Of a stretch of 64,000 bases of DNA, positions 4,255 to 51,329 are shown one piece after another. How positions within the stretch are numbered: the first letter of the stretch is position 1; each line of letters begins with the position of its first letter. Below the pieces are notes generated by a model, which worked only from the letters and a program-made list of their open reading frames with translations, did no database searches and was not told the origin of the DNA. The translations under genes and the position numbers were made by a program. The DNA comes from Candidatus Kapaibacterium sp. (GTDB lineage: Bacteria > Bacteroidota > Ignavibacteria > Kapaibacteriales > UBA2268): NCBI GenBank assembly GCA_963665665.1, contig OY762428.1:1440001-1504000 (forward strand), given 5' to 3'.

Positions 4255-4494
4255 ATGGAAGAAACCAAAACAATACAATATTGCTCCCCGGAAGTAGTTG
4301 ATTTCAAGTGGATGGCTGTTTTAGGTGATTGTACTAATAATGGATCAGATCCGGGAGCATACTGTACTTCAAATGGAGGCATTGCAACGCAGGCATGCGA
4401 CTATAACGGATCTGGGGCTGTCGGAGGATGCGCTTCTAATGGTGCCAGTGCTACAACATGCGGGAACGGAGCCGGTACCGGCACCGGCGGATAA
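4255..4494 (+). CDS. RiPP precursor peptide A1 (79 aa)
   Basis: AAGGAG RBS. Leader YCSPEVVDFKWM. Core with five C-x(2-3)-G motifs (CTNNG, CTSNG, CDYNG, CASNG, CGNG). Confidence 0.88.
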   Translation: MEETKTIQYCSPEVVDFKWMAVLGDCTNNGSDPGAYCTSNGGIATQACDYNGSGAVGGCASNGASATTCGNGAGTGTGG

Positions 4495-4748
4495 ATTAAA
4501 TATCTCATGCTCCTCCACACAAGCTGCTGAAAATTATTTCCAGACAACTCTGGAAAAATGATCATACCGGAGTTGTTTATTATTAACCTTGTACTTTAAA
4601 TTAACAATCAAGTATTAATATAATCAAATTTTTATTCTAATACATTTCACAATTACTCAAAACAACCAGTACTATCAAATTTTAATTGCAAAACTTCATC
4701 TTTTTCTTTATATTATTGATATAAATAATCTTATTAAGGAATATTATA

Positions 4749-4967
4749 ATGGATGAATTAGAAAAAATTCATTACTGCACTCCTGAAATAGTCGACTTTA
4801 AATGGATGAAAATATTTGGCGATTGTATATCCCATGGTACAGGGGATTCAACCCGGTGTTCTGCCAATGGGTCAACAGCAGGAGGTACAAAATCTGCAAC
4901 CAAAGGATGTACCAGTGTCGGTTTACTTGCAGATAATACCTGTAAAGCCGGACTAAAGGCTTTTTGA
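4749..4967 (+). CDS. RiPP precursor peptide A2 (72 aa)
   Basis: TAAGGA RBS. Leader YCTPEIVDFKWM. Core CISHG, CSANG, CTSVG, CKAG. Confidence 0.88.
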   Translation: MDELEKIHYCTPEIVDFKWMKIFGDCISHGTGDSTRCSANGSTAGGTKSATKGCTSVGLLADNTCKAGLKAF

Positions 4968-5020
4968 CCGATTATTAGAAACCGGTATAATTGCCTGAAT
5001 GATTATTTCGGTTTATTAAT

Positions 5021-6178
5021 TTACAACAAACCAACTTTTACGGATACCCCGAATTCTTCGCTGAGCTTAGAATAATTCTCGCCTGTTAGGTCGTCCCCGA
5101 ATCTGTCAAAGGGATTGTTTGGAAGAACAATATGGTCGATAGAAATTTTCTGGTCTTTATACTTTTCAAACGCCTTTATAAGTGCTTTCCTGAAGTCTTC
5201 AACCATTAACAGGCCTGAACAAATTATATTTCCTTCGTAGGTATAATTCTTTACACATTCCGAATAGTGATTGTTCGGCACAAAAGGCAGGTTTTTTTCA
5301 ATTATTTCTTTGCCCCTTGCGTATGCCGCTTCAGAAAACATCCAGAGAACATTTCTAAACCCCTTATTAAATGAGCCAATCATAAATTGATAAGGATCGA
5401 AATTCAAAGGTTTGTTCAAATCAGGACGTACATCCAGGTCGATTTTGTACTTCTTTCTCATTTTCGCAAAGAAATCACTCATTTCAACAAGATCAACATC
5501 CATTATCTCTTTTAGTTCAGGCCCCGCATTTTTGCTCCACCCGGGAAGATAAACCAATACTTTCTTCACATAGAACATCAGTGCCTGAATCGTTTTTTCA
5601 ATATCTTCATAACCTACCAGTTTCGGCAGCGGAACCATGGCGGCATCCACAAAGAAGCCTTCTTTCAAAAGCCTGTAAAAGGAATTCCGGGCTATTTGGA
5701 ATTTTTCTATCTTGTTTTTATAAATCCGGCTCCAGTTCCCGGGATTATCAGAGTGATAGGAGATAGTAAATTTCATTGGTTTAAAAGGCAGAAGCTCCTT
5801 TATAAATTCCTCTGTAAACAGGGTTCCGTTTGTATTAACCTGGATGACTCTGCCCGGAATTTTTTCGCGTATGAGCTTCAAAATAGTAAAAATGTCCGGA
5901 TGCAGAAGTGCCTCACCCTCGGATACTCTGCCCGGCAGGCTGTCCCCTATCCTGATATCGGCATTAGATTTTGTATCCAATATGGCAATACCCTTCTTAA
6001 TATCATCAAGTGAGCGAAAACCTTCCCTGTATATTTCAAATGGGTTCATATCGTTTGAACAGAAAAGACATTTGGCATTGCAAACAGAGGAAACAGGCAA
6101 TTGATTAGTATATCCGCCTGCAAGAGTTTCGTACATAAATTTACTTATCTCAATTCCGCCCATGATAATTCCTGACAA
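5021..6178 (-). CDS. Radical SAM protein, DUF512/NifB-MoaA-like
   Basis: CNAKCLFC motif, EGEALLHP, NTNG. C-terminal NYTYEGNIICSGLL...DDLTG resembles DUF512. Start codon uncertain. Confidence 0.7.
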   Translation of the reverse strand: MSGIIMGGIEISKFMYETLAGGYTNQLPVSSVCNAKCLFCSNDMNPFEIYREGFRSLDDIKKGIAILDTKSNADIRIGDSLPGRVSEGEALLHPDIFTILKLIREKIPGRVIQVNTNGTLFTEEFIKELLPFKPMKFTISYHSDNPGNWSRIYKNKIEKFQIARNSFYRLLKEGFFVDAAMVPLPKLVGYEDIEKTIQALMFYVKKVLVYLPGWSKNAGPELKEIMDVDLVEMSDFFAKMRKKYKIDLDVRPDLNKPLNFDPYQFMIGSFNKGFRNVLWMFSEAAYARGKEIIEKNLPFVPNNHYSECVKNYTYEGNIICSGLLMVEDFRKALIKAFEKYKDQKISIDHIVLPNNPFDRFGDDLTGENYSKLSEEFGVSVKVGLL

Positions 6179-6401
6179 TAATACTATTCAAAGCCTGACA
6201 TATACTTCGCAACATATCTTTGGAATAAAATAAATAATTTTTTTTGCAGCAGCAAATTTATGTTTCCAGATAAAAAGAAAAAGTATTATTTGGTATTACT
6301 TCTTCAAACAAATTGCCATTTTAAATTTCCGCTACTAAATATCATCACAGGTTATTATTTTGTAAAAATTTTTGTTTTTGAATTTTCATAGGAACTTAGG
6401 G

Positions 6402-6593
6402 ATGGAAGGAACTGTGATATTATCTTATTGTACGCCTGAAGTTATTGATTTCAAGTGGATGGATTCAGTAGGCTTATGTAACCCCGGATCTGGGGACTCT
6501 TCAAATTGCTCTGATGGTAATGTTGCAAGTACGATTTGCAACCAGGGAAATACAGCAGGGGTTAATTGCTTTGTTGGCCCTGACTTTTCATAA
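6402..6593 (+). CDS. RiPP precursor peptide A3 (63 aa)
   Basis: ATG at 6402 aligns with A1/A2. Leader YCTPEVIDFKWM. Core CNPG, CSDG, CNQG, CFVG. Confidence 0.87.
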   Translation: MEGTVILSYCTPEVIDFKWMDSVGLCNPGSGDSSNCSDGNVASTICNQGNTAGVNCFVGPDFS

Positions 6594-6626
6594 TTAATTA
6601 TTGTTTTACAAATATTGAGTATTGTT

Positions 6627-6833
6627 ATGGAAGAGGCAGGAAGAATAAAATATTGCATACCGGAAGTTGTTGATTTCAGGTGGATGGGTGTTCTTGGTCA
6701 CTGTACAAATGGAACTTCCGCAGCTCATGCCGGAGGTTCGAATTGCTCTCAGGGAAGTAGTGCGGATTCAGTTTGTAATATTGGAAATGATGCATATAAC
6801 TGTGCTGCCAATGGTAATGTTGTTTCAAGTTAG
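6627..6833 (+). CDS. RiPP precursor peptide A4 (68 aa)
   Basis: ATG at 6627. Leader YCIPEVVDFRWM. Core CTNG, CSQG, CNIG, CAANG. Confidence 0.87.
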   Translation: MEEAGRIKYCIPEVVDFRWMGVLGHCTNGTSAAHAGGSNCSQGSSADSVCNIGNDAYNCAANGNVVSS

Positions 6834-6924: not shown

Positions 6925-7800
6925 ATGGAATATATTTTTAACCTGGCAAATGGCAGAAAATGGAAGCTAAAGTCATTATCCGAAAAAACTGATTTCGTAA
7001 CAGGAAATTATGCCCGTGTTTGTTCAATGAAAGAATCTTCAAACAACATCGACTGCGAAATTTCCTGTTTTGTGGATACAACTGAAGAAGTAAATGAATA
7101 TCGAAAGTACCATCCTGATTATATTGAAACCGGAAGAAAAGATTACGTTCGAATATTTTTCTCTCCCGATTATAAAGAAAGCATGGTATTCTTCAATCCG
7201 GAAAATCTTGATCACGAAAATCTGAAGTATTTATCTACAAATTATATTTCACGGGCATATCAGATACAGGCAATAAAAAACTACAAGGCTCTCCCCTGCC
7301 ATTGCGCACTGGTGGAAATTGAGGGCAAAGGCGCAGTGATCGGAGCCGTGGGTGATTGCGGAAAATCCACTTGCGCTACAAGGCTCCCCCATCCACACAA
7401 GGCCCTTGCCGATGATTATGCAATGATATTTCCCGTGAACGGGGATCTGATTGCACAGGCCATGCCCACCTGGAGCGTTTTCATAGGGGGCGACAGGGAT
7501 TACCGGGCAAACTGTTCTCAATCAACAATGGTAAAATCATTTTTCTTCCTTAAACAAAGTAAAACTGACTATGTAGAACGCACCAACGGAGTAATAGCCC
7601 ACCAGCATTTGAACAATAATTTTCAGGATCTGCTTGCCCTGAGGGTTTTGAAGGACCAACCTGAAGGCTTTGGCGAGGAAATACGCACTAAGATATTCGA
7701 TATGGCCGGGAAAATATCCGGGAAGTGGCCTACTTATTTTCTTCATGCCACACTTCATGGTGATTTCTGGAATAAAATGAATGAAGTGATGGAGGAATAA
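6925..7800 (+). CDS. scmC: SynChlorMet cassette protein ScmC-like (HPr-kinase-related P-loop protein)
   Basis: HCALVEIEGKGAVIGAVGDCGKSTC, LADD, AMPTWS and FFLKQ motifs, plus cassette context. Confidence 0.72.
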   Translation: MEYIFNLANGRKWKLKSLSEKTDFVTGNYARVCSMKESSNNIDCEISCFVDTTEEVNEYRKYHPDYIETGRKDYVRIFFSPDYKESMVFFNPENLDHENLKYLSTNYISRAYQIQAIKNYKALPCHCALVEIEGKGAVIGAVGDCGKSTCATRLPHPHKALADDYAMIFPVNGDLIAQAMPTWSVFIGGDRDYRANCSQSTMVKSFFFLKQSKTDYVERTNGVIAHQHLNNNFQDLLALRVLKDQPEGFGEEIRTKIFDMAGKISGKWPTYFLHATLHGDFWNKMNEVMEE

Positions 7801-7804
7801 AGCC

Positions 7805-8413
7805 ATGCAGCGAATTACCGATTACGACTATACCGGCCCCAGTATGAAGCGGGTTTTCAAACCCGCCGACGGCCTGATTATTGATCAGAATACTGATTTC
7901 AATGCTCTAAAACCCGGGGATATAATAAATTTTAAACCACCCGGAAATATTCATCATATTGTTCACCGTATAATAAAAAAAACAGCGGAAGGATATATTA
8001 CCCGTGGCGATAATAACAGCGGTCCCGATCCATATATTATTACCCCGGAATTCAATCCCAGTCTGGTTGTTGCTATTCGCCGCGGAAAAAAAGACATAAA
8101 ACTATACCGTGGAAAGATTGGAGTGATGATACATCATAAAAACCTGATGTTAAAGAAACTGCAGGTCTATACTAAATCCCCTTTGAAAAGAATATTGGAT
8201 AGAATTTCAGATGCCGGTATATTTTATAAACTCCATTTGTATGACAACAAAATTGAAGTTAAGCAATACAGAAATAACAATTTCTCGCAGAAAATCCTTT
8301 TCCTTGGAAAAAAGCAGATTGGACGGAAGATTCAATCCGAAGAATGGAATATCCGGCAACCGTGGCGGCTTTTCATTGATCCGAAAATTCTGGATGAGGC
8401 AAACCAAAAATGA
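7805..8413 (+). CDS. S24/S26-family (signal peptidase-like) serine peptidase, candidate leader peptidase
   Basis: GPSM catalytic-Ser motif, GDII, IVHRI, TRGDNN. No N-terminal TM helix. Confidence 0.8.
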   Translation: MQRITDYDYTGPSMKRVFKPADGLIIDQNTDFNALKPGDIINFKPPGNIHHIVHRIIKKTAEGYITRGDNNSGPDPYIITPEFNPSLVVAIRRGKKDIKLYRGKIGVMIHHKNLMLKKLQVYTKSPLKRILDRISDAGIFYKLHLYDNKIEVKQYRNNNFSQKILFLGKKQIGRKIQSEEWNIRQPWRLFIDPKILDEANQK

Positions 8414-8438: not shown

Positions 8439-8458
8439 ATTCTGTCACTATTAAAGTA

Positions 8459-18226: not shown

Positions 18227-19162
18227 TTACCCGCGTATCAGCCCGAGAAATCCTGTTGGATTCTGATTGGCCTGCGCAAGGGATGTAAGTGAAGCCTGTT
18301 GCAGGAACTGTGACTTGACAAGTTCAAGCTGCTCCTTTGCAACGTCCGAATCTTCCAGCCGGGAAATGGCTGCATTATAATTTACAATTTGTTCCTGAAG
18401 CAAATCTTCCTGAGAAGACATCCTGTTAGCAATACCGCCAACCATGGAGGCGACTTTGTTAACATTATTTAGAGCTTCAGCAAGGCTCGTAAGGGTAACA
18501 TTAATTTCCTCACGGGCAAAAATACCGAGGTTATCAGAAGTAACTTCATCCAGGCGGGCTAAATCAAGGCTGGTAACACCGCCAAATATATCAGTTGAAA
18601 GTGCATTCAGATCAAAATTATTGCTGGAAACATTAAAATCCTCGTTTCCTTTTGTCATATCAACACTAACACTGATTGCAGTATTTGCAGCAGTAAATCC
18701 TATAAAGAAATCAGCGGAAAAACCACCCTTTAAGAGCTGTGCTCCGGCAAAAACAGTCGAATCGATAACCGTCTGTACCTGTTGAGCCATGCGGTAGGCC
18801 GCCTTGGCAAGTGCAACTTTCTCATCTGTTCCCATAGCGCCCGAGGAAGCAGTGGCTGTAGCATCCCTGATATTCGTTATCAATGAGTTAATATTATCCA
18901 GGCCATCCTGGAGAATATTGGTCATATTCAGAACATCACCCACTGTATTGAGAGCGCTTTTCAGGGCGCCATTCCTGGCCTGCAATGCTCTGGCAGTTAT
19001 GTATGCCGCTACATCATCCGCAGCATTATTGATTCTTTTACCTGTCGATAATCTCAACTGCCTGAGTGAAATATCCTGGTTAGCCGCATCAAGAGCATTG
19101 TATGCGTTCTCTGCAGGAGTATTTGTACGTATTCTTGCCTGTCCGCCTGTTGCAAATGGCAT
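18227..19162 (-). CDS. fliC: Flagellin (short, 311 aa), paralog 2
   Basis: N-terminal RLSTGKRINNAADD and C-terminal SRLEDSDVAKE...LAQANQ. Confidence 0.9.
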   Translation of the reverse strand: MPFATGGQARIRTNTPAENAYNALDAANQDISLRQLRLSTGKRINNAADDVAAYITARALQARNGALKSALNTVGDVLNMTNILQDGLDNINSLITNIRDATATASSGAMGTDEKVALAKAAYRMAQQVQTVIDSTVFAGAQLLKGGFSADFFIGFTAANTAISVSVDMTKGNEDFNVSSNNFDLNALSTDIFGGVTSLDLARLDEVTSDNLGIFAREEINVTLTSLAEALNNVNKVASMVGGIANRMSSQEDLLQEQIVNYNAAISRLEDSDVAKEQLELVKSQFLQQASLTSLAQANQNPTGFLGLIRG

Positions 19163-19206
19163 AATTTACCTCGGATTTACAATAAATGTCTTATATTTTT
19201 CTACTT

Positions 19207-20142
19207 TTACCCGCTAATCAACTGCAGGAATGACTGCGGATTCTGGTTGGCCTGAGCCAACGATACAAGCGAGGCCTGCTGCAGGAACTGAGCTTTAACC
19301 AATTCAAGCTGCTCCTTGGCAACATCTGCATCCTCAATCCTGGAAATTGCAGCGTTATAGTTAACAATCTGCTCGTTCAGCAGGTCTTCCTGTGATTGCA
19401 GCCTGTTAACAACACCACCAACATAAGATGCAACTTTGTTGACATTATCAATAGCATCTGCAAGGCTTGTAAGGGTTGTCTGGAGAGTATCAAAATCGAA
19501 TATACCCAGATTTGATGCCGTAACATTGTCAAGGTCTCTCAGATCAAGGCCTGTAACACCTGCAAAATTATCAATCGACATAGAATTAATATCGAAATGC
19601 CCGCTTTCAACATTGAAGTCCTCATTCTGCGGTGTCATATCCAATGCCAGTGTCAGCAGGTTATGAGATGCATTCGTACCGATAACAAAATCTGCCGAAA
19701 AAGTACCGTCAATAAGCTGCCTGCCACCAAATACGGTTGAATCAACAACAGTCTGAATCTGCTCTGACATTCTGAAAGCAGCCTTGGCAAGAGCAATTTT
19801 TTCATCAGTACCCATAGCGCCGGATGCTGCTGTTGCTGTTGCTTCTTTAATCTGGCCCAGCAGATTATAGATATTGTCCATAGCGTCCATAACTATGTAT
19901 GAAACGTTCGACGCGTCGCCAACGGCTTTTAATGCAGCTTTCAAAGCGCCGTTCCTGGCCTGCAGGGCACGGGATGTAATGTAACCGGCAACATCATCGG
20001 CCGCATTATTGATTCTTTTTCCCGTAGATAGTCTCAACTGCCTGAGCGAAATCGACTTATTCGCTGAATCCAACGAGTTATAAGCATTCTCCGCCGGCGT
20101 GTTGGTTCTTATTCTTGCATTTCCTCCTATAGCAAAAGGCAT
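19207..20142 (-). CDS. fliC: Flagellin (short, 311 aa), paralog 1
   Basis: RLSTGKRINNAADD, SRIEDADVAKE...LAQANQNPQSFLQLI. GGAGG RBS. Confidence 0.9.
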   Translation of the reverse strand: MPFAIGGNARIRTNTPAENAYNSLDSANKSISLRQLRLSTGKRINNAADDVAGYITSRALQARNGALKAALKAVGDASNVSYIVMDAMDNIYNLLGQIKEATATAASGAMGTDEKIALAKAAFRMSEQIQTVVDSTVFGGRQLIDGTFSADFVIGTNASHNLLTLALDMTPQNEDFNVESGHFDINSMSIDNFAGVTGLDLRDLDNVTASNLGIFDFDTLQTTLTSLADAIDNVNKVASYVGGVVNRLQSQEDLLNEQIVNYNAAISRIEDADVAKEQLELVKAQFLQQASLVSLAQANQNPQSFLQLISG

Positions 20143-22751: not shown

Positions 22752-22950
22752 GGGAAACTCCCTCTCCAGCACTCTCCCTCCATTCTTCCACTTTAATGAA
22801 TCGAATAATTTCCTTGTTTCAATGCTGTTTTGAATCAGAATCCTGATGTTTGGGCTAATCGCTTTGCTGTCGGGGTTTTAAACTGCTATGTCCGGAGGTA
22901 TTGAAGCATTGTTTGGCCTTATTGTAGTGAAATCCGGCCTAATTGTACGC

Positions 22951-23643: not shown

Positions 23644-23689
23644 TTGTTTGGCATTGAAATCCCGAAGGTAGAGATGAGAATAGTCTTTA

Positions 23690-24175
23690 GATATAACTGA
23701 TAATCAAATATATAGCCCAAAATATTAAATAGTATACTAATTCTAACAAATATATAGTATTTATAATAATTTATATAATATATCCAAGCCTTGATATAGT
23801 TCATCTAACAAAACTTTTTATATAAATAACTAATTATCTTATATATATAATTAAATAATTGGTATGATTTATTAAATTAGTATTATAGACTATTAAATAT
23901 TAGTATTAACCTATTAATTAATTAGTATATCTAATTTGTTAGAACAATTAAATATATACTTGGATACTCAATATATTTTATAAATAAAGAATAATAAATT
24001 ATAAAATGGAGTGATTAATGACTTGTTTGAATTATTTATTTGATTAGTTATATTATTAATATTGTAAATCTATATGATTATTTAATAATTCTATAAATAT
24101 ATTTATTACAAATACTTAAATATTTACTAATTCTTATGATATATTTTATTATTCAAGTATTATAAATTATTCAAT
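23690..24175. other. Extremely AT-rich non-coding tract between the two repeat arrays
   Basis: G/C bases are sparse over ~490 bp and there is no credible ORF. Confidence 0.8.
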
Positions 24176-37055: not shown

Positions 37056-38345
37056 ATGATATTAGAATTTAGAGTTGAGAATTTTCTCTCTTTCAGAGAA
37101 GAGCAGATACTTAGTTTCGAAGCTACTGCTGAAAAGGGATTTGAATCAGAATATTGTGTTGATATTAATAAAAACTTAAAAATATTAAAACTAGGATTTA
37201 TATACGGGGCTAATGCTTCTGGAAAAACAAATCTGATAAAGGCTCTTCACTTTTTAAATGCTTTTATTTTACATCAAAAAAATGGAAAGAATGAACCTAC
37301 TGGCTGTGACCCATTTATTTTCGATGATTCTTGTATTGATAAGCCAAGTAGATTTTATTTATCCTTTTTTATAAATAAAACAAAATTTATTTACAATGTT
37401 GAGTTAGACGAAAAAATAGTTTATTATGAAAATTTATCTTTTTTCCCGTCTTCCAAGTCAGCTCTCATTTACGAGAGAACTTACGATAGAAATAAGGATA
37501 AAACCATTATTAAATTTGGCAATTATTCAAAATTAAAACTAAAAGACAGAAGAACAATTGAAGGCCTGACAATATCAAATAGCTCTGTTCTTTCCTCTTT
37601 TGGTAAAGCCAATGTTGAAAAATCAATAATTACAGATATATATAATTGGTTTATAGATGGATTTGCTATACCTATATATCCCAATTCTGATTTATTTGGT
37701 TGGGCACAATCGAAAATAAAAAACAACAAAAACCGCTTAGAATTTCTCCTTGATGTTTTAAAAAAAGCTGATTTTAATATTTCTTCAATTGATATTACTA
37801 CCAAAAAAATTGATATTGATAGTACTATTGAAAAAAACATCAATAGTATGAATATACCTGATGAATTAAAACAGAAAATCATTAATGATAAGATGGTGGA
37901 AGCCGAAGAAATTCGCTTCCAACATTCAACAAAAATGATGAAAAAATACCTCCCAATATCTGCAGAATCAAAAGGAACATTGAGATTTTTTGGTATGGGA
38001 GCTGTTTTAGAAAGCCTGATAAAAGATGGTTCGATATATGCTATTGATGAACTTGAGAATTCTTTGCATTATGAATTAGTAGCTCATTTTATTAAGATAT
38101 TCCTGGAAAATTCCAATAGTTCTCAGTTAATATTTACAACACATGATATAAACTTGCTAAACCTTGATTTTTTAAGGCGCGATACTGTATGGTTTGTCGA
38201 AAAAAATGAGTATGGAGCCTCAGAATTATATTCTCTCGTTGAATTTAAACTTCACAAAAATCTTTCGCCATTCAATGCATACAGGGTTGGTAAATTAGGC
38301 GCAAAACCAAATTTGTCAGATTCATCAATAAACAATTATGAGTAG
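37056..38345 (+). CDS. AAA_21/RloA (AbiLi-like) ATPase
   Basis: MILEFRVENFLSF, IYGANASGKTN, ESKGT, IDELENSLH, QLIFTTH, Y..G..GA.P. Confidence 0.88.
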   Translation: MILEFRVENFLSFREEQILSFEATAEKGFESEYCVDINKNLKILKLGFIYGANASGKTNLIKALHFLNAFILHQKNGKNEPTGCDPFIFDDSCIDKPSRFYLSFFINKTKFIYNVELDEKIVYYENLSFFPSSKSALIYERTYDRNKDKTIIKFGNYSKLKLKDRRTIEGLTISNSSVLSSFGKANVEKSIITDIYNWFIDGFAIPIYPNSDLFGWAQSKIKNNKNRLEFLLDVLKKADFNISSIDITTKKIDIDSTIEKNINSMNIPDELKQKIINDKMVEAEEIRFQHSTKMMKKYLPISAESKGTLRFFGMGAVLESLIKDGSIYAIDELENSLHYELVAHFIKIFLENSNSSQLIFTTHDINLLNLDFLRRDTVWFVEKNEYGASELYSLVEFKLHKNLSPFNAYRVGKLGAKPNLSDSSINNYE

Positions 38346-38946
38346 AAGGAAAAGAAATACTAAACCTACCAGAAGTAGTATCGCTATTGTAGGAGAGGGC
38401 AAAACAGAAATAATATATTTTCGGCAAATGAATATTTCCAAAAAATATAAATTTACTCTCAAACCGGATTTTCCAAAACATTCTGATTTAAAGTCGATAA
38501 TAAAAAAAGCGAGAAGTATGAAGGATGAAGGCTATGATCATGTTTTTTGTGTATTCGACCTGGACAGAATATTAACCGATACCACTGAAAAAAGAATCTA
38601 TGAATCGGAACTCAAAAAAATCAGATTAAAAAAAAATATTTATTTTATTGAATCACACCCTTGCTTCGAATTATGGTTTTTATATCATTTCGGAAGAAGC
38701 GGATTAAAACAATATAATTGTTGCGATAGTTTAATTCATGATTTGAAAACACATTTACCTCATTATTCAAAAGAAGAATCTTATCTGAAAAGAAATAATA
38801 TTTACAAACTTCTTATTGAAAATGGAAATATTGAAGCAGCTATAGATATTGCAACAGAAAAATGTAGTCAAAAAGCACTTAGTAATAATGAAGGCCTGAA
38901 TTTTACTATGGTACATAAGCTAATTGAATTCCTTGAAAAAAAATAG
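38338..38946 (+). CDS. RloB-family (AbiLii-like) protein
   Basis: IVGEGKTEIIYF, VFCVFDLD, SHPCFELWFLYHF. Overlaps the ATPase gene. Confidence 0.88.
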   Translation: MSRRKRNTKPTRSSIAIVGEGKTEIIYFRQMNISKKYKFTLKPDFPKHSDLKSIIKKARSMKDEGYDHVFCVFDLDRILTDTTEKRIYESELKKIRLKKNIYFIESHPCFELWFLYHFGRSGLKQYNCCDSLIHDLKTHLPHYSKEESYLKRNNIYKLLIENGNIEAAIDIATEKCSQKALSNNEGLNFTMVHKLIEFLEKK

Positions 38947-43271: not shown

Positions 43272-43517
43272 ATGTTATACAAGAAATTGAGTATAAAATC
43301 ATTAAGCAATAACGACTGTGCTTTATGCTTAGCCGGGTCAATGGCAGGTTCACCTGCAGCTCAGGTACTTTGTGAATCGGGTTCAGCTCCTGATAATATT
43401 AATAAATATGGTTGTACCAACGGCTACGAAAATACTTCTCACGATATTACAAAATGCAATTCCGGATCGCTAAATCAGATCCCCTCTTCCTGTTTTAACG
43501 GGGTAGAACCTTTATAA
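43272..43517 (+). CDS. RiPP precursor-like peptide B1 (81 aa)
   Basis: Leader MLYKKLSI. Core CLAG, CESG, CTNG, CNSG, CFNG. ATG 43272 chosen by alignment with B2-B6. Confidence 0.75.
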   Translation: MLYKKLSIKSLSNNDCALCLAGSMAGSPAAQVLCESGSAPDNINKYGCTNGYENTSHDITKCNSGSLNQIPSSCFNGVEPL

Positions 43518-43526
43518 CCGGCCAAT

Positions 43527-43561
43527 AAAAAATCCCCTCCTGCAATAGGAAGGGATTTTTT
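43527..43561. terminator. Bidirectional intrinsic terminator (B1 / PFOR)
   Basis: AAAAAATCCCCTCCT...AGGAAGGGATTTTTT. Confidence 0.7.
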
Positions 43562-43580
43562 AATCAATCTATTATCGGGA

Positions 43581-46500
43581 TTAGCCTTCGCCGTTTCCGT
43601 CAAATTTTCTTTCAGAAAGATATTTATAAGTTGCATATCTTTCATCAACATCTTTTTGTGCCTGCTCATAATATTTAGCAGCATCTTCAGGTTTGATCTT
43701 CTTAAGCATACGGAACCTTGTTTCAGCATCCATGTATTCTGCAACAGGCATTTTCGGAGCTTTTGAATCAAGTGAAAGCGGGTTTTTGCCTTCTTTTGTA
43801 AGCTCAGGATTGTACCTGTAAAGTATCCACTGCCCTGAATCGATTGCCATTTTCTGGTGTACGAGAGGATTGGTCATATCAATACCATGAGCAATACAGT
43901 GGCTGTATGCAATAATGATTGACGGCCCATCGTAGGCTTCTGCTTCAACAAATGTTTTAAGTGTGTGAGCATCGTTCGAACCAAGAGCTACAACACCAAC
44001 ATAAACGTTGCCATAAGACATTGCCATCATACCGAGGTCTTTCTTTTTGTCCGGTTTACCGCCGGCAGCGAATTTTGCAATTGCGCTGATCGGTGTGGCT
44101 TTTGATTTCTGGCCGCCTGTGTTCGAGTAAACTTCAGTATCAAGTACAAGAACGTTAACATTTTTGCCGGTTGCTAGTACGTGGTCAAGTCCGCCGTATC
44201 CAATATCATAAGCCCATCCGTCACCACCGATGATCCAAACTGATTTCTTAACAAGGTAATCAGCAACTGCTTTCAGACGTTTTGCTTCAGGAGTATCAAG
44301 ATTTTCAATTTTTGCTTTGAGTTCAGCTACTCTTACGCGCTGCTCTTCAATGTCTTTATCTGATTTCTGAACAGCATTCATAATATCGTTTGCCAGATCA
44401 GCACCGATAGCATCTTTCATATTTTCAATAAGTTCAAGGCCAATTTCATTCTGTTTGTCGATAGCAAGGCGCATTCCAAGGCCAAATTCAGCATTGTCTT
44501 CGAACAGTGAGTTCGACCAGGCAGTACCGCGACCGTTTGCGTCAACTGACCATGGAGTTGTAGGAAGGTTACCACCGTAAATAGATGAGCAGCCTGTAGC
44601 GTTAGCAACAACAGCGCGATCGCCAAAGAGCTGAGACATCAGTTTAACATAAGGTGTTTCACCGCAACCTGCACAAGCGCCGGAGAATTCGAATAGCGGC
44701 CTCTGAAGCTGCTGCTGACGAAGCTGGTTAACGTTGATAAGGTCTCTTGATTTTTCAGGAATGTTAAGGAAGAATTCCCAGTTTTTAACTTCTTCTGTAC
44801 GCAATGGCATCTGAGGTGCCATATTGAGTGATTTCCTGCCAACATTTTTCTTATCTTTTGCAGGGCAAACTTCAACACAAACGCCGCAACCTGTACAATC
44901 TTCAGGAGCAATCTGAATAGTGTATTTTTCGCCTTTCCAGTTCTTGTCCTTTGTATCCATTGCTTTGAATGTTGCAGGAGCGCCTTCAAGATATTTTTCG
45001 TCATAGGATTTAATCCTGATTGAAGCGTGAGGACAAACCATTGCACATTTACCGCACTGGATACAAAGATCAGGTTCCCAAACAGGAATATCAAGAGCGA
45101 TATTGCGTTTTTCGTACTGTGTTGTAGCCATTGGCCATGTACCGTCTGCCGGGAATGCACTAACCGGAAGGTCGTCGCCACGGCTGGCAATAATTTCACC
45201 AATAACATTCTTAACAAATTCAGGTGAACTTTCCGGAACAGGCTTGTGAAGTTCGAATGTGCTGTCTGCTGCAGCCGGAATTTCAACCTGCTGGAGATAT
45301 TCAAGAGTATTGTCAACAGCTTTAAGGTTCATGTTAACAATTTCATCACCTTTACGGCCATAAGTTTTCTTAATTGATTTCTTGATTTCTTCAATTGCCT
45401 GTTCGCGAGGAAGAACGCCTGAAATAGCAAAGAAACAAACCTGCATAACAGTGTTGATCCTGCGTCCCATGCCACTGATATCTGCTACATGCTGTGCATC
45501 AATTGTATAAAGTTTGATTTCTTTGTCGATAATTTCCTGCTGAACTGTTTTTGGCAGGTTGCCCCATACTTCTTCTTTTTTCCAGGGAGCATTGATAAGG
45601 AAAGTTCCTCCTTTTACAAGGTCTTTTACCATATCAAGTTTTTCCAGGAATACTGTCTGGTGGCAGGCAACAAAGTTAGCTTTGTTTACAAGATAAGTTG
45701 ATCTGATCGGTTTCGGGCCGAATCTGAGGTGAGAAACAGTAAGAGCACCTGCTTTTTTCGAATCATAAACAAAGTAACCCTGAGCATAATTGTCTGTATT
45801 TTCACCAATGATCTTGATAGAGTTTTTATTAGCGCCAACCGTACCGTCTGAACCAAGGCCGTAGAACATAGCGCGAACTACATCATCACCTTCAAGGCTG
45901 AAGTCTTTGTCATATTCAATATAGTTGCCTGTAATGTCATCAACGATACCAACAACGAAGCTGTTTTTAGGATCGTCGTTTTTCAGTTCATCATAAACGC
46001 CTTTAACCATTGAAGCTGTAAATTCTTTTGAAGAAAGGCCATAACGTCCGCCAACAACTTTTGGCATATCTTTAACTTCACCCCAACCCTTGTTAAGGCC
46101 TTCGTAAAGAGCTGCAACAACATCCTGATACAAAGGCTCGCCTGCTGCACCAGGTTCTTTTGTCCTGTCAAGAACAGCAATTTTCTTAACTGTTGCAGGA
46201 AGGGCTTCCATGAAACGTTTTACATCGAAAGGACGATACAAACGAACTTTTACAACACCAACTTTTTCGCCGTTATTTGTTAAATATTCAACTGTTTCGT
46301 CAGTTGTTGCACCGGCGGAAGCCATAAGAACTATCACGCGGTCAGCATCCGGAGCACCTTCGTACTGGAATACTTTATATTCACGGCCTGTAAGTTTGGC
46401 AAATTTATCCATGTTCTCCTGAACGATATCAGGGCATGCTTCATAATATTTATTAATTGTTTCACGATTCTGGAAAAATACGTCCGGGTTCTGGGCTGTA

Positions 46501-47153
46501 CCCCTGATAACCGGATGGTCAGGTGAAAGTGATCTTTCCCTGTGTTCTCTTACCAGTTCGTCGTCAATCATTTCTTTCATAACATCTTCAGAAAGAAGTT
46601 CAATTTTTGCAACTTCGTGTGATGTACGGAAACCATCAAAGAATGCAAGGAAAGGAATCCTCGATTTCAGAGTGGAAGCCTGTGCAATAAGAGCAAGGTC
46701 CATTGTTTCCTGAACAGAACCTGCTGCTGTCATACCAAAACCGGTACCACGGGCAGCCATAACATCACTATGATCGCCAAATATTGAAAGTGCATGTGTA
46801 GCAAGAGACCTTGCACTAATGCTGAATAACGCCGGAGTTAGTTCGCCGGCAATTTTATACATGTTAGGTATTTTCAAAAGTAAGCCCTGCGAGGCAGTAA
46901 AAGTAGCAGTCAGAGCGCCTCCCTGTAAGGAACCGTGAACAGCACCGGCAGCGCCGCCTTCACTCTGCATTTCCATTACTTCAGGAATGTTGCCCCAGAT
47001 GTTCTTAACACCCTTGGATGCCCATTCGTCTGCCCATTCACCCATGTTCGATGATGGTGTAATCGGGTAAATAGCGCAAACTTCGTTGGTCTTATAAGCA
47101 ACGTAAGCTGCCGCTTCATTTCCGTCGATCATTACAAATTTCTTTTCGCTCAT
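43581..47153 (-). CDS. nifJ: Pyruvate:ferredoxin (flavodoxin) oxidoreductase
   Basis: YPITPSS, MQSEGGAAGA, GLGSDGTVG, two CxxCxxCxxxCP, FEFSGACAGCGE, GGDGWAYDIG. Confidence 0.97.
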   Translation of the reverse strand: MSEKKFVMIDGNEAAAYVAYKTNEVCAIYPITPSSNMGEWADEWASKGVKNIWGNIPEVMEMQSEGGAAGAVHGSLQGGALTATFTASQGLLLKIPNMYKIAGELTPALFSISARSLATHALSIFGDHSDVMAARGTGFGMTAAGSVQETMDLALIAQASTLKSRIPFLAFFDGFRTSHEVAKIELLSEDVMKEMIDDELVREHRERSLSPDHPVIRGTAQNPDVFFQNRETINKYYEACPDIVQENMDKFAKLTGREYKVFQYEGAPDADRVIVLMASAGATTDETVEYLTNNGEKVGVVKVRLYRPFDVKRFMEALPATVKKIAVLDRTKEPGAAGEPLYQDVVAALYEGLNKGWGEVKDMPKVVGGRYGLSSKEFTASMVKGVYDELKNDDPKNSFVVGIVDDITGNYIEYDKDFSLEGDDVVRAMFYGLGSDGTVGANKNSIKIIGENTDNYAQGYFVYDSKKAGALTVSHLRFGPKPIRSTYLVNKANFVACHQTVFLEKLDMVKDLVKGGTFLINAPWKKEEVWGNLPKTVQQEIIDKEIKLYTIDAQHVADISGMGRRINTVMQVCFFAISGVLPREQAIEEIKKSIKKTYGRKGDEIVNMNLKAVDNTLEYLQQVEIPAAADSTFELHKPVPESSPEFVKNVIGEIIASRGDDLPVSAFPADGTWPMATTQYEKRNIALDIPVWEPDLCIQCGKCAMVCPHASIRIKSYDEKYLEGAPATFKAMDTKDKNWKGEKYTIQIAPEDCTGCGVCVEVCPAKDKKNVGRKSLNMAPQMPLRTEEVKNWEFFLNIPEKSRDLINVNQLRQQQLQRPLFEFSGACAGCGETPYVKLMSQLFGDRAVVANATGCSSIYGGNLPTTPWSVDANGRGTAWSNSLFEDNAEFGLGMRLAIDKQNEIGLELIENMKDAIGADLANDIMNAVQKSDKDIEEQRVRVAELKAKIENLDTPEAKRLKAVADYLVKKSVWIIGGDGWAYDIGYGGLDHVLATGKNVNVLVLDTEVYSNTGGQKSKATPISAIAKFAAGGKPDKKKDLGMMAMSYGNVYVGVVALGSNDAHTLKTFVEAEAYDGPSIIIAYSHCIAHGIDMTNPLVHQKMAIDSGQWILYRYNPELTKEGKNPLSLDSKAPKMPVAEYMDAETRFRMLKKIKPEDAAKYYEQAQKDVDERYATYKYLSERKFDGNGEG

Positions 47154-47412
47154 ATCAATATTCCCTTAATATAGAGTTTAAATGGAAAAAGTCATAAAAT
47201 ATTTAATTGTCAAGATTTATCTTTTTAAGAAAAATACTATTACAGATTACAAATTTAAGAATTATTTGTGAAAATATCGAAGCATATATGCAATATTTTT
47301 CTTATATTTAATTGTTATTATTAACAGTTAGACTAATATAATTATTAGTCTTCACAAAATATTACAGTTTTTTTTGTATACAATTGGGAAATTAATTTAC
47401 AAAAAATAAAAT

Positions 47413-47650
47413 ATGAAGCGCAAAGAACTCAAAATCAATGCACTTAATAAAAGATATTTCAATTATCCGGCAATGGCGTTTTTCCAGGAAGAACTGTCGG
47501 GCTATGTTTTCCTGGCCATGTTATTGCTAATCATGATATACACTCATTAGCAATACCCTATTAGGCCTTTGTTATCAAGGTAGATATCCGCTAAGAGCAA
47601 CGGGAAATTCCAACAAATCAAATACTTATTATTACTCAGAAAAATTATGA
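47413..47650 (+). pseudogene. Possible frameshifted remnant of a B-type precursor
   Basis: Leader-like MKRKELKINALN from 47413, then GLCFPG (47499-47516) and GLCYQG (47564-47581) in the two other frames. Confidence 0.25.
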
Positions 47651-47871
47651 AATATACTAAACCAAGGCTTAATAATATAAATTCCGAAACTATTCGAACA
47701 TATTGTGCAGACGGAACTGCCGCTCAGGCTTCAACAGGATGTATTGCCGGAGGAGCTATTGATTTTTTATGTTCATTTGGCATAGAGAAGGGTAATTGTG
47801 TTGCAGGGTTCGAGGCTTCATCAGGAGGATTATCAGTTGAATGTGATAACGGAAGCGATGATATTCTCTAA
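47647..47871 (+). CDS. RiPP precursor-like peptide B2 (74 aa)
   Basis: Leader MKYTKPRL. Core CADG, CIAG, CSFG, CVAG, CDNG. Confidence 0.82.
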   Translation: MKYTKPRLNNINSETIRTYCADGTAAQASTGCIAGGAIDFLCSFGIEKGNCVAGFEASSGGLSVECDNGSDDIL

Positions 47872-47988
47872 GAATTGTTAATCTGACTTAGAATAAACAT
47901 TTTAAACAAAGATTAATTTTGTTAAATATAAATTTATCCTTAAATTAATTTTGTAAACAACTATCCATTGAATTATTGTTGATACAAA

Positions 47989-48219
47989 ATGAAATACTCA
48001 AAACTGCGCTTGTTATCGCTTGATGACGACAAGGGCGAAGCATACTGTGGCGATGGTTCATCAGCTTTTGGGCTAACGGGATGTACTACTGGCTCTGTTG
48101 ATGGTTCTTCATGTACCAATGGCAATGGCGATCTTGCCTGTTGGGTCGGAAATTCTGCCGAATTGGGCAGCCTTTTCACTTATTGCAGTAATGGCGGAGA
48201 TGATAACTCCCAACCCTGA
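47989..48219 (+). CDS. RiPP precursor-like peptide B3 (76 aa)
   Basis: Leader MKYSKLRL. Core CGDG, CTTG, CTNG, CWVG, CSNG. Confidence 0.82.
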   Translation: MKYSKLRLLSLDDDKGEAYCGDGSSAFGLTGCTTGSVDGSSCTNGNGDLACWVGNSAELGSLFTYCSNGGDDNSQP

Positions 48220-48239
48220 CTTTCTCAACTTGTCAAAAT

Positions 48240-48276
48240 ATTATCCCCGGCAAATAATATATTTGTCGGGGATAAT
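48240..48276. terminator. Hairpin terminator (B3 / rubrerythrin-like gene)
   Basis: ATTATCCCCGGCAAATA...TATTTGTCGGGGATAAT. Confidence 0.65.
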
Positions 48277-48293
48277 TTATTTTTTGAATTCCC

Positions 48294-48743
48294 TTAATTC
48301 TCGTAAAGAACCTCATCATCATATAAAGTTTCAAGCATCAATTTGTGCTGAGATTCTTCTGCTGCAAGCTTCAGGAACAATTGCTTAACAGCAATATCAT
48401 CTGAAGCATTCGATAGAATTATATAAAGGCGGTTAGCCTTTTCTTCTCTTTTCATAGCCGTAACAAGAATTTCCTGGAAAGTCATATTATCATGAATATC
48501 CGGAGCTTCCATTGAATTTGAAATTTTCAGATCCTGAATTTCAGGTAGTTTAAACCCTTCAAAATCTTCTGCTTTGAAATTCCTGATTTTTTCTGCATGA
48601 ATTTGTTCCATTTTTTCAAATTCTTTCAGCATATTTTTACTGGAATCGGATTTCACTCTATCCTGAAGACTACGATAGAACTCAGCAGCTTCAAGTTCTC
48701 TTTCAATCGCGTATTCCAGGACTTCACTAACTTTTGCGTCCAT
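48294..48743 (-). CDS. Rubrerythrin/ferritin-like diiron protein
   Basis: AIERE..A..FY...E..H and AMKRE..A..LY...LAAEESQH. Confidence 0.88.
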   Translation of the reverse strand: MDAKVSEVLEYAIERELEAAEFYRSLQDRVKSDSSKNMLKEFEKMEQIHAEKIRNFKAEDFEGFKLPEIQDLKISNSMEAPDIHDNMTFQEILVTAMKREEKANRLYIILSNASDDIAVKQLFLKLAAEESQHKLMLETLYDDEVLYEN

Positions 48744-48820
48744 AAATATTTCCTTTTCTATTTTAAAAACAGCCTTTGAATAAAAAATCCAAAGGCCTGG
48801 TTGTCAAATTTTTAAATTAT

Positions 48821-49330
48821 TTATTCAGCAGTTGGGGGAGTAAACACCCTGCTTTTGAGTTCGCTGTCAAGGAAGAATAGCCCTGCACCCGATTCGCCGG
48901 CAAGTTTAACCCTGTCAACTATCTCGCTGACAGTGGCTTCTTCTTCCACCTGCTCGTTAATGAACCATTGGAGCATAGTTCCCGAGGCGTGGTCTTTTTC
49001 CTGCAATGCAAGATCATAAAGGTCGTTTATACTTGCCGTAATCGACTGTTCATGCGCGTAAGCTGCTTCAAAACCCGCAAGAGGTGACTCCCATTCAGTA
49101 GGTGTGGCATTTATCTGCCCAAGTTTAACTTTTCCGCCACGGTCAAGCAAATAATCAAATAACTTAAGAGCATGGGATTGTTCTTCCTGAGCCTGAATCC
49201 TCATCCAGTTAGCGAATCCGTTCATATTTATTGAATGATAGTATGCAGCCATAGCAAGATAAAGATTCGATGAATACATTTCTTTTCTTATCTGTTCATT
49301 AATTGCATCAACCATAACCTGCTTAATCAT
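48821..49330 (-). CDS. ftnA: Non-heme ferritin
   Basis: NEQIRKEMYSSNLYL, QAQEEQSHA, HEQSIT, LQWFINEQVEEE. Confidence 0.95.
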   Translation of the reverse strand: MIKQVMVDAINEQIRKEMYSSNLYLAMAAYYHSINMNGFANWMRIQAQEEQSHALKLFDYLLDRGGKVKLGQINATPTEWESPLAGFEAAYAHEQSITASINDLYDLALQEKDHASGTMLQWFINEQVEEEATVSEIVDRVKLAGESGAGLFFLDSELKSRVFTPPTAE

Positions 49331-49469
49331 AAATTTCTCCGTTTTTAAAATATTATCTATAACAATTTACATATTAATATTTAACGCTACATTCTGTGAT
49401 TTATTTGATTTAAGTATCTAAATTCAGTATTTTTGTTGAAATTTTGATATTCAATATTTACAGGTAATT

Positions 49470-49733
49470 ATGATTTACAGAAAACCACATCTTTTAGGAT
49501 TCAATAGTGAAACGGCACAACTTTGCCAGGACGGCAGTGGAGCCACTGGAATGGTGAATGTATTTCCAGGAACCCCAACGCATTGCAACAGCGGAAGTAC
49601 TCCTGATGATTCAACTGCAAGCAGTGGATGCAATGACGGAAGCGTTGACAGCAATGCCACTTGGTATAGTTGTCTGTCAGGATCGTTAAATGCATTAAAC
49701 GGCTCTCCTTGCGATAATGGCGGAACTCCTTAG
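49470..49733 (+). CDS. RiPP precursor-like peptide B4 (87 aa)
   Basis: Leader MIYRKPHL. Core CQDG, CNSG, CNDG, CLSG, CDNG. Confidence 0.83.
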   Translation: MIYRKPHLLGFNSETAQLCQDGSGATGMVNVFPGTPTHCNSGSTPDDSTASSGCNDGSVDSNATWYSCLSGSLNALNGSPCDNGGTP

Positions 49734-49798
49734 CATATTTGATAGTAACTCATTTGTAATTGTATGTTGTTTTTAAAACATTGAGAAAGAAATTTAGT

Positions 49799-50053
49799 AT
49801 GATATATTCCAAACCAAATCTTTTTTTTGTAAAGGATAGCTCCTCACAATATTGTTCTGCAGGAACAGCTGCTTCTGGAAGTATTTATAACTCTACTTTA
49901 TGTAATCCTTCCGGCAGCAGTCCAAATGCAACTAGTCCATACGGTGTTTGTACAGATGGTAATACAAATTCATCACCAGCCTACCAGACATGTAATTCCG
50001 GATCAACTGTTTCCGTTTCCGGTTTTGCATGTGACTCAGGAGGAAGTAATTAG
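49799..50053 (+). CDS. RiPP precursor-like peptide B5 (84 aa)
   Basis: Leader MIYSKPNL (ATG 49799). Core CSAG, CNPSG, CTDG, CNSG, CDSG. Confidence 0.83.
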   Translation: MIYSKPNLFFVKDSSSQYCSAGTAASGSIYNSTLCNPSGSSPNATSPYGVCTDGNTNSSPAYQTCNSGSTVSVSGFACDSGGSN

Positions 50054-50056
50054 TTG

Positions 50057-50094
50057 GAATAAATACTCCGAAGCAAACTTCGGTGTATTTATTC
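50057..50094. terminator. Hairpin terminator after B5
   Basis: GAATAAATACTCCGAAG-CAAA-CTTCGGTGTATTTATTC. Confidence 0.65.
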
Positions 50095-50127
50095 AATTAG
50101 ATAAAATTTTATAACCGAATATTTGAT

Positions 50128-50976
50128 TTAATCATAATATTCATAATAAGAAATTATACTGACAGAATCATTTCTTATTATTTCCGTTTTGATTAATTTA
50201 TTTCCCTCGTAAATATTCTTTCCCGTTTGAATAGTTTTTTGCGGTTGATAAGTTGTGTTTTGATAGCTTAGGATTTTTTCTTCATCATTGTATAACAATA
50301 CATTTTCACTATAGAGTAAGGAATCTTTATAAAATTGAGTTTTTACGATTTTATCACCATCATAAATATTCAGATTTTTCCTTTGTTCTTTTCCATTTGC
50401 ATCGGTTGTTATTCTTGATATTTGTTTTTCACCATCAAAAATTGTAACAGTTCTTTGAATCAATGTGCTATCCGGCTTGTAAACTTTTTGAATATTTTCT
50501 TCATCACCGTATTCAGTATAAGTCCTTTTTGTTATTTCACCTTTTTGATTATAATGAACTTTTAATATTTCCCGCCCTTCTGAATCATATTCGTATGTTT
50601 CGTAGAGATATTTTTCCTCTTTTTTATCAAATTGATAGCGTTTAATGATTTTACCATTATCATTATATTCAAAGTCTGAAAAATATTTTGTTTTTTCGTT
50701 TTTTATATTACCGTTATCATAATCGATAGAAGTCATGCCCAACGTGTTGCCTAACGAATCAACTATAAATCTGGTCTCTTTTTTTAAAATATCGGCTGGT
50801 TTATATTTTATCTGCCGTTCAAATTGTCCGGATTCATTCATAAACATAATATCTTTGGAAACTAATTCATCATTTATATAAGTTTCCTGAATTACTTTAC
50901 TGAATTTTGGGATTTCTTTAACAGATGCGCAGCCAATAATGACAGATACAATTAATACAGGAATTATATTTTTCAT
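50128..50976 (-). CDS. Hypothetical lipoprotein with YD-like beta repeats
   Basis: Lipobox IIGC after MKNIIPVLIVSV. Repeats such as EYNDNGK, EYDSEGR, IYDGDK, IYEGNK. Confidence 0.7.
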   Translation of the reverse strand: MKNIIPVLIVSVIIGCASVKEIPKFSKVIQETYINDELVSKDIMFMNESGQFERQIKYKPADILKKETRFIVDSLGNTLGMTSIDYDNGNIKNEKTKYFSDFEYNDNGKIIKRYQFDKKEEKYLYETYEYDSEGREILKVHYNQKGEITKRTYTEYGDEENIQKVYKPDSTLIQRTVTIFDGEKQISRITTDANGKEQRKNLNIYDGDKIVKTQFYKDSLLYSENVLLYNDEEKILSYQNTTYQPQKTIQTGKNIYEGNKLIKTEIIRNDSVSIISYYEYYD

Positions 50977-51083
50977 TTTATACCAAATGTAAATTATTAA
51001 TAACATGGAATTTACTAAATTGTTTTGAGTTATAAAATAATTTTTATATTTTGAAATAATTGTATAATTATTTTTACTGTAAT

Positions 51084-51329
51084 ATGAAATATCGAAAACT
51101 AAACTTGCTTTTTTTAGAGGTTACAGACAAGAATACTTGTGCTGTTGGAAGCAGTGCTTCTTTTAGTCCACTTTGTACTAACGGCCCGGATGTAAATTCC
51201 GGAATGAGTTGCAGTACCGGCCAGACAAACTCCATGACATGCACCATAGGGACTTCTGCAATGGGTACGGGCTGTCAAACGGGTACTGTTTTTGGTACTG
51301 GTTGTGTAAGTGGAACAACAGATACTTAA
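51084..51329 (+). CDS. RiPP precursor-like peptide B6 (81 aa)
   Basis: Leader MKYRKLNL (ATG 51084). Core CAVG, CTNG, CSTG, CTIG, CQTG, CVSG. Confidence 0.82.
   Translation: MKYRKLNLLFLEVTDKNTCAVGSSASFSPLCTNGPDVNSGMSCSTGQTNSMTCTIGTSAMGTGCQTGTVFGTGCVSGTTDT

Follow-up and report, generated by a model that had tools for sequence, protein, structure and literature searches.

The stretch of DNA analysed here (the window) comprises 64 kb, genome positions 1440001-1504000, of the single 5.46-Mb contig OY762428.1 of Candidatus Kapaibacterium sp. (GCA_963665665.1). At its start lies a SynChlorMet (Scm) cassette, here called cassette I, in which four short Cys-rich peptides (A1-A4) are encoded among putative maturation enzymes. 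Six more Cys-rich peptides (B1-B6) are encoded further downstream, between housekeeping genes. The ten open reading frames (ORFs) are the subject of this work, and we will argue that they are probably precursor peptides in two leader dialects of one family.

The NCBIfam models for Scm proteins are TIGR04252 (ScmA), TIGR04249 (ScmC), TIGR04248 (ScmD), TIGR04250 (ScmE) and TIGR04251 (ScmF). Just upstream of the window (genome 1439720-1439995) is the gene for ScmD-I, a PqqD-type RiPP recognition element (RRE; Pfam PqqD, E 1.1e-12) that scores 86.8 bits against the ScmD cut-off of 100. It is followed on the + strand by two radical S-adenosylmethionine (SAM)/SPASM enzymes, ScmE (25..1137; 492 bits against a cut-off of 400) and ScmF (1164..2339; 461 bits against 400), which share just 25% identity. 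In an alignment of six ScmE sequences, this one among them, the CxxxCxxC motif and the SPASM cysteines are invariant. After the peptide genes come, again on the + strand, ScmC, an HprK-like protein (6925..7800; E 6.2e-34, 117.7 bits, just under the cut-off of 125), and a homologue of SipW/archaeal-type signal peptidase I (7805..8413; TIGR02228, E 1.8e-13, 50.6 bits against 51.85), which is a candidate leader peptidase. Cassette I is thus classified as SynChlorMet, with ScmE and ScmF above the equivalog cut-offs and with ScmC and ScmD, both slightly below theirs, adjacent.

Three accessory genes are added to this set. They encode an extra HPr-kinase-like P-loop protein (2406..3314, + strand; weak HprK-related and ScmC matches, E 6e-8 and 0.0098), a sulfotransferase (3307..4167, + strand; Pfam PF00685, E 4.3e-25) and a third radical SAM protein (5021..6178, - strand; Pfam PF04055, E 1.9e-12; no SPASM match). 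None of the three was seen by tblastn in 33 other Scm loci. A word-pattern scan of genome contigs, a method that detects close relatives only, gave no relative of the third radical SAM gene.

All ten peptide ORFs were confirmed on the + strand at the positions reported in an earlier note on this DNA, made from the letters alone. A1 (4255..4494) consists of the leader YCSPEVVDFKWM followed by four CxxxG units and one CxxG unit; A2 (4749..4967) is also mainly CxxxG, while A3 (6402..6593; four CxxG units) and A4 (6627..6833) are mainly CxxG. The orphan precursors are B1 (43272..43517; leader MLYKKLSI, five CxxG units and an additional Cys16), B2 (47647..47871; leader MKYTKPRL), B3 (47989..48219), B4 (49470..49733; leader MIYRKPHL), B5 (49799..50053) and B6 (51084..51329; six CxxG units). 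The general build is a short leader with (K)-Y-x-x-P-x-[LIV], then four to six C-x-x(x)-G-[S/T/G]-x-[A/P] units. In detail, the leader motif reads Y-C-[STI]-P-E-[VI] in the A peptides and Y-x-K-[PL]-x-L in the B peptides. Cys10 of the A leader varies: P0007, a 72-aa metagenome homologue that by eye is near-identical to A2, has Ser at this position, and the two A-type orphans of this genome have Glu.

The earlier note had described a grammar common to both groups, and its observations were borne out. In A1-A4, Tyr9 stands 17 residues before the first core Cys (26); in B1-B6, Tyr3 stands 16 or 17 residues before the Cys of the first CxxG (19 or 20). The heptamers quoted for the core openings of the B peptides and A4 (CLAGSMA, CADGTAA, CGDGSSA, CQDGSGA, CSAGTAA, CAVGSSA, CTNGTSA) are all present, as are the internal repeats of the A cores (CSQGSSA, CNQGNTA, CSANGSTA, CDYNGSGA). 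The motif was compared with composition-matched sequences by shuffling the residues within each core 20,000 times, the core start being set by us at the first core Cys. Every core Cys (48/48) is followed by Gly at +3 or +4, a count that no shuffle reached (mean 14.5, sd 3.0, maximum 28 over the pooled shuffles). Gly at exactly +3 follows 39 of the 48 (shuffle mean 8.0, maximum 19), and C-x-x-G-[ST]-x-A occurs nine times (mean 0.19, maximum 4); again none of the 20,000 shuffles reached either observed value. The preference for Asn, Asp or Ser before the Gly stood in part. It is found in 19 of 31 B units, and Asn occupies the position in six of the eight CxxxG units of the A peptides, but it is not general, since elsewhere the position is mostly A, S or T. 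Consequently, we rejected these residues as a general acceptor.

Further information about the relationship between the two groups was obtained by profile comparison. The A and B profiles align with each other in hhalign with a probability of 55.8% (E 1.1e-4), in a register that places Tyr on Tyr, Pro on Pro and first Cys on first Cys. An external profile was built from 12 peptides of other lineages whose genes neighbour ScmE/ScmF orthologues, the loci having been gathered by ScmE searches. Against this profile, the A alignment reaches 95.9% (E 6e-9) and the B alignment 97.4% (E 1.2e-11). The common ancestry proposed in the earlier note is therefore supported, as the profiles align in register and each matches cassette-borne peptides. 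It could be objected that Gly/Ser/Cys-rich low-complexity peptides resemble each other by convergence or by composition: the direct A-B comparison is just moderately supported, and repeat-rich cores may inflate profile scores. Such an artefact is extremely improbable, given that the register is set by leader residues rather than by the repeats, that composition-keeping shuffles never match the observed counts, and that the two dialects occur in homologous cassettes whose enzymes are 53% identical, as described below.

The same build is found well beyond this genome. Seventeen peptides encoded beside ScmE/F orthologues share it (for example K-x-P-Y-E-P-P-x-I-x-D-L-G, then C-x-x-G repeats), with Gly at +3 or +4 for 86 of 88 Cys and at +3 for 74 of 88. 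The external profile matches 1,650 clusters (50% identity) at E <=0.001 among 1.84 billion representatives. Family statistics were taken from 141 short peptides with the leader anchor out of the best 150 of the 1,650 representatives. Gly follows at +3 or +4 for 786 of their 797 Cys, and A or P stands at +6 for 631 of 797; 75 of the 141 peptides have five Cys, more than have any other number. K-x-[KP]-Y-E-x-P-x-[LIV]-x-x-L summarises their leaders, 137 of which have Tyr as the anchor residue. Since the grammar recurs throughout this family, what A and B share is a large-family signature and not a private link between them. Protein-database searches with the A and B alignments gave four and three hits, respectively, because such small genes are rarely called. 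A longer kind of protein was also noticed: in P0008, P0009, P0019, P0021 and P0023 (265-1062 aa), up to 12 segments fit the C-x-x-G repeat profile, and P0019 has an ScmA-like leader and repeats followed by about 100 more residues.

With regard to formal classification, the curated ScmA model is narrow: of the 12 peptides from cassettes elsewhere, just four reach E <=0.01 with it. Here, the scores are 15.6 bits for A3 (E 0.014; the model begins at Tyr9), 11.3 for B2, 8.1 for B4 and 7.7 for B6. Being below the TIGR04252 cut-off, the ten peptides are filed as ScmA-like relatives rather than as members of that family. A1-A4 lie inside an ScmC/D/E/F cassette; B1-B6 do not, but they have paralogues in a second cassette. 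As for the ScmA-like superfamily, the ten peptides are assigned to it: the A and B profiles resemble that of the cassette-borne peptides, the cores have at least four C-x-x(x)-G units, and the YxxPx[LIV] leader is present apart from Leu for Pro in B1, B3 and B6.

The second cassette was found by searching the whole genome. For ScmE as for ScmF, only two places score above the NCBIfam cut-off, the window and 3.056 Mb (cassette II), about 1.55 Mb away. The order in cassette II is B-type peptide, ScmD, ScmE, B-type peptide, ScmF, ABC exporter, ScmC, SipW-like peptidase, B-type peptide, MBL hydrolase and DUF89 phosphatase. In both cassettes, ScmE is preceded by an ScmD. Identity between the two is 53% for ScmE, 53% for ScmF, 51% for ScmD, 28% for ScmC and 33% for the peptidase, so by sequence comparison the enzyme sets are paralogous.

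Altogether the genome contains 21 intact precursor copies, six of A type and about 15 of B type. Besides the four A-type genes of cassette I there is an orphan pair at 5.279 Mb (genome 5279402-5279959), with the leader MKYEVPEVIGFEWM, beside a peroxiredoxin-like gene and an M64 peptidase gene and with no maturase nearby. Of the intact B-type genes, cassette II holds three and the window six; the other six are dispersed, and one of these is an A/B intermediate. A decayed B-type copy, with one TGA and one TAA, lies at genome 3043260-3043496, 13 kb upstream of cassette II. Neither a B-type peptide nor ScmE was found in 40 relatives of the same family or order, so that, among the genomes searched, the two co-occur in this genome only. 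The A-type leader E[VI][VI]DF[KR]WM was found in no other genome by a pattern scan of 185,579 species genomes, and P0007 is the one protein outside this genome in which the longer block PE[VI][VI]DF[KR]WM was seen. Five other Scm-bearing genomes have one to four precursor matches each; one of them has matches on contigs away from its cassette as well, with four matches of which one carries a stop.

B1-B6 occupy gaps (43272-51329) between minus-strand housekeeping genes, namely a hydrogenase operon, PFOR, ferritin and nuoN, and no maturase gene lies beside them within the window. Terminator-like hairpins follow B1 (43534-43555, reported on the - strand), B3 (48240-48276, 17 pairs), B5 (50068-50083) and B6 (51537-51565), which suggests the transcription units B1, B2-B3, B4-B5 and B6. 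Positions 47200-51418 are also covered, with 84 differences, by a contig of another study that carries a different organism label; too few of the positions reported for it fall inside the B genes to judge selection. The same contig differs mostly at every third base within a 149-aa ORF beside the ferritin gene (48294-48743, - strand). The hairpins, this second contig and the 21 intact copies against a single decayed one speak for real genes.

As cassette II holds B-type precursors 1.55 Mb away, we regard B1-B6 as orphan copies that are probably matured in trans by its enzymes. An alternative is that they are not maturase substrates, but free-standing Cys/Gly-rich proteins, metallothionein-like for example, or decaying ScmA descendants. 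This would suit the distance to the nearest cognate cassette, the iron and iron-sulfur neighbours (PFOR, ferritin, hydrogenase, Nuo) and the missing leader Pro in three of the six. We nevertheless consider it quite improbable. The leader is retained in all six peptides, whose cores are at 26-35% identity, and the scaffold Cys and Gly columns are invariant. Decay is visible where it has occurred, in one copy with two stops, and the other 21 copies are intact. The joint lack of B-type peptides and ScmE in the 40 relatives, together with the off-cassette matches in a second Scm genome, also counts against it. Moreover, metal binding by unmodified peptides would leave the RRE-type leader and the cassette unexplained.

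How the leaders could be read is suggested by other systems. According to PMC13381572, discrete lasso RREs bind a [Y/W]xxPx[L/V/I/A/F/Y] leader motif, and the leader of the LPP (linear polyphosphorylated peptide) system contains a YxxP motif whose Tyr is at -16 and whose Pro is at -13. The same paper reports that the SipW-like protease LppS cleaves the LPP leader only if the RRE, which presents the leader, is present. In our case, the discrete-RRE leader motif is found in A1-A4, B2, B4 and B5, and a discrete PqqD-family protein is encoded in the cluster. ScmE and ScmF contain no RRE domain, the RRE being the separate protein ScmD; the radical-SAM cysteines of ScmE begin at residue 18, which leaves no room for one, and the model match of ScmF begins at residue 25. 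A complex prediction for ScmD-II with residues 1-40 of B4, both given as alignments, scored 0.31 against a mark of 0.32, and one control scored 0.24; it is given no weight in either direction.

The distance from the Tyr to the first Cys is 16-18 in all 21 intact copies of this genome, the five Leu-variant leaders having been counted by eye. Among the 141 representatives, whose ranking by a canonical-peptide profile biases the distribution toward canonical peptides, it is 17 (1), 18 (29), 19 (53), 20 (15), 21 (20), 22 (10), 23 (5) or 25-42 (8). Taken as 17-28 with a mode of 19, the spacing of the family as a whole is thus a loose ruler, and this genome stands at its short end. The earlier note had postulated a fixed ruler from the RRE to the active site. 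The Tyr does lie in an RRE-type motif and the spacing is narrow here, but given the wider spread it is constrained rather than fixed. As to its other end, the enzymes have no RRE of their own, and the distance to the leader peptidase, published for LPP, fits at least as well as one to a radical-SAM active site. By analogy we infer that what is measured is the distance between the Tyr held by the RRE and the site of leader cleavage, which would here coincide with the first Cys or adjoin it. In the 141 representatives, small residues cluster 13-17 after the Tyr; A-x-A occurs in 52 of them and most often ends at +15 (27 of 61 occurrences), and the A-type peptides have an invariant Gly at +15. Finally, the first unit of the B-type peptides is more conserved than the later ones, C-x-x-G-[ST]-x-A being present in 14 of 15 copies as counted by eye, and might itself serve for recognition or cleavage.

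Taking these data together, we propose the following scheme. The Y-x-x-P-x-[LIV] stretch would dock on the discrete PqqD-type RRE ScmD, in the manner of lasso and LPP leaders. ScmD would then hand the peptide to ScmE and ScmF, which would act on every Cys-x-x-Gly unit and most probably close a small thioether ring at its Cys. As the Cys and Gly are invariant in every unit and the residue before the Gly varies, a bond to the alpha-carbon of Gly is the simplest guess for the acceptor, by analogy with the repeated small rings of ranthipeptides. The SipW-like peptidase would cut the leader about 16 residues past the Tyr, immediately ahead of the first Cys or at it, which would account for the constant Tyr-Cys spacing. 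B1-B6 and the six further dispersed B-type copies would be matured in trans by cassette II, one enzyme set thereby serving many variable cores. We estimate at roughly 70% the probability that A and B are two leader dialects of one ScmA-like superfamily and that docking, modification, cleavage and trans-maturation proceed, as a whole, in this way.

Regarding the chemistry, the nearest solved structure to ScmE is the sactisynthase SkfB (PDB 6efn), with E 1.2e-20 over the N-terminal half only. There are sub-threshold matches to the StsB, PapB, AlbA and SkfB models; the PapB model matches ScmE with E 4.5e-26 and 92 bits against a cut-off of 340. The structure and model matches both lean towards thioether formation.

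Several points weigh against the proposal. ScmE and ScmF match heme, PQQ and mycofactocin enzymes at least as strongly as they match thioether synthases, and the best solved match of ScmF is BlsE, a decarboxylase. Our literature search found no paper on the SynChlorMet/Scm cassette or its chemistry; a term search of PMC10288494 gave no mention of Scm families, and PMC13692751 deals with the CrpC ranthionine, a different system. None of the ten peptides reaches the ScmA cut-off of 35 bits, and six give no hit at all. B1, B3, B6 and two further orphans carry Leu where the leader motif needs Pro, and PMC13381572 reports that a Pro-to-Ala change in the LPP leader lowered RRE binding. The B leaders also have no clear small-x-small site before the first Cys, and the family spacing has the bias mentioned above. 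Lastly, the assignment of B1-B6 to cassette II takes leader likeness as its single ground, and two ScmD proteins that are 51% identical might be used across cassettes.

The earlier note had further suggested that ScmE and ScmF might share out the work of a single pathway, and that the two leader types and the CxxG and CxxxG spacings could stem from this. Cassette I does contain two SPASM enzymes with little mutual identity, and A1/A2 are chiefly CxxxG where A3/A4 are chiefly CxxG. The comparison with other cassettes did not sustain the idea, which we now judge very improbable. Among 33 other cassettes, 28 have both enzymes, and of the five loci without ScmF three end at a contig edge. The 14 other cassettes with a recognisable peptide have one leader dialect each (one adds a lone Trp variant) and are mostly CxxG, with Gly at +3 for the 74 of 88 Cys given above. 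As cassettes with one dialect carry both enzymes, ScmE and ScmF both appear to belong to the basic pathway for one peptide type. In this respect, cassette II has both enzymes and B-type peptides only, and the two leader types of this genome go with the two separate cassettes, each with its own ScmD.

Whether the two cassettes are separated from each other is another matter. One option is that both are promiscuous, ScmD-I and ScmD-II each accepting A and B leaders without any insulation. We regard this as possible, if somewhat unlikely. It agrees with the motif Y-x-x-P-x-[LIV] and the 16-17 spacing common to both dialects, with the 51% identity of the two ScmD proteins and with the binding of non-cognate YxxP and WxxP leaders by the lasso RRE FusB1, reported in PMC13381572. 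Less compatible with it is an extra conserved leader block, D/G-F-[KRE]-W-M, present in 6/6 A copies and in no B copy; the same paper also describes co-resident RREs that evolved leader discrimination. It is tempting to propose the opposite, two insulated libraries in which each cassette would read its own dialect through its own ScmD (six A-type and about 15 B-type peptides), the products being an undescribed scaffold of five or six consecutive four-residue Cys-Gly alpha-carbon thioether rings and the spacing setting the cut at the first ring. This detailed version is unlikely to hold in all its parts.

Other features of the window were recorded. Two tandem flagellin genes lie at 18227-20142, and the same genome encodes several proteins with a type IX secretion system (T9SS) C-terminal sorting domain. 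A 270-aa ORF without a family match (22888-23700) contains 33 repeats of a 21-base unit at 22949-23648 (77% matches); one frame reads as a Cys/Ala/Ser/Leu heptad-like repeat. Tandem repeats with 105- and 147-base units (2-3 copies) are found at 24255-24790, in the gap preceding a TPR/histidine-kinase gene. In a region of low GC content (0.32), at 37056-38946, an RloB-like gene comes after an AAA_21 (AbiEii-like ATPase) gene, and the two look like a defence pair.

The ScmA-like family is large and its Scm cassettes are curated in NCBIfam, yet its chemistry has no paper that we could find. Many lineages of anaerobes carry the signature next to ScmE/ScmF. For studying it this genome is convenient, since a single organism combines two paralogous enzyme sets with 21 natural substrate variants (CxxG and CxxNG units), and the leader motif is one with a binding mode already solved in other systems. 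It also permits one to ask directly whether co-resident RREs separate two similar pathways. The informative contrast is cassette I versus cassette II, and ScmD-I versus ScmD-II, rather than ScmE versus ScmF.

Comparison with known systems places these cassettes as follows. Ranthipeptides are known with repeated small thioether rings, and PapB/freyrasin has Cx3D repeats. The Scm system resembles ranthi- and sactipeptides in combining SPASM radical SAM enzymes with a precursor that has one invariant Cys per repeat. It differs from them in scoring far under their family cut-offs, in the position of the putative partner, Gly at +3 and not Asp at +4, and in using two enzymes and a separate RRE protein. 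In the prochlorosins, the single enzyme ProcM serves many dispersed precursor genes. Both systems combine a conserved leader with hypervariable cores, and in both many precursor genes lie dispersed, far from those of the enzymes; the enzyme class and the chemistry are different, and maturation in trans is a proposal in the Scm case.

LPP (LppA/LppB/LppK/LppS; PMC13381572) is close in organization. Both Scm cassettes encode a discrete PqqD-type RRE, an HprK-like protein and a SipW-type peptidase, and cassette II has an MsbA-like exporter. The leaders are also alike, LPP and lasso leaders having [Y/W]xxPx[L/V/I] with the Tyr about 16 residues before the core. The Scm cassettes differ in adding two radical SAM/SPASM enzymes, in having no NTP transferase and in their cores, Cys-x-x-Gly repeats as opposed to the phosphorylated Ser3 of LPP.

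The closest system is Scm as defined in NCBIfam. ScmE and ScmF are over the curated cut-offs and ScmC and ScmD slightly under, the order ScmD-ScmE-ScmF...ScmC-peptidase is the same, and the peptides have the Y-x-x-P leader and C-x-x-G repeats. Differences are the sub-cut-off ScmA scores of all ten peptides, the A dialect with the extended leader PE[VI][VI]DF[KR]WM and C-x-x-N-G units, the sulfotransferase, second HprK-like protein and third radical SAM gene added in cassette I, and 21 intact copies against one to four matches in each of five other Scm genomes. In summary, the system is a somewhat aberrant case of a catalogued, chemically unstudied kind, and what is unusual in it is the A dialect, the C-x-x-N-G units, the three accessory genes of cassette I and the size and dispersal of its precursor set.

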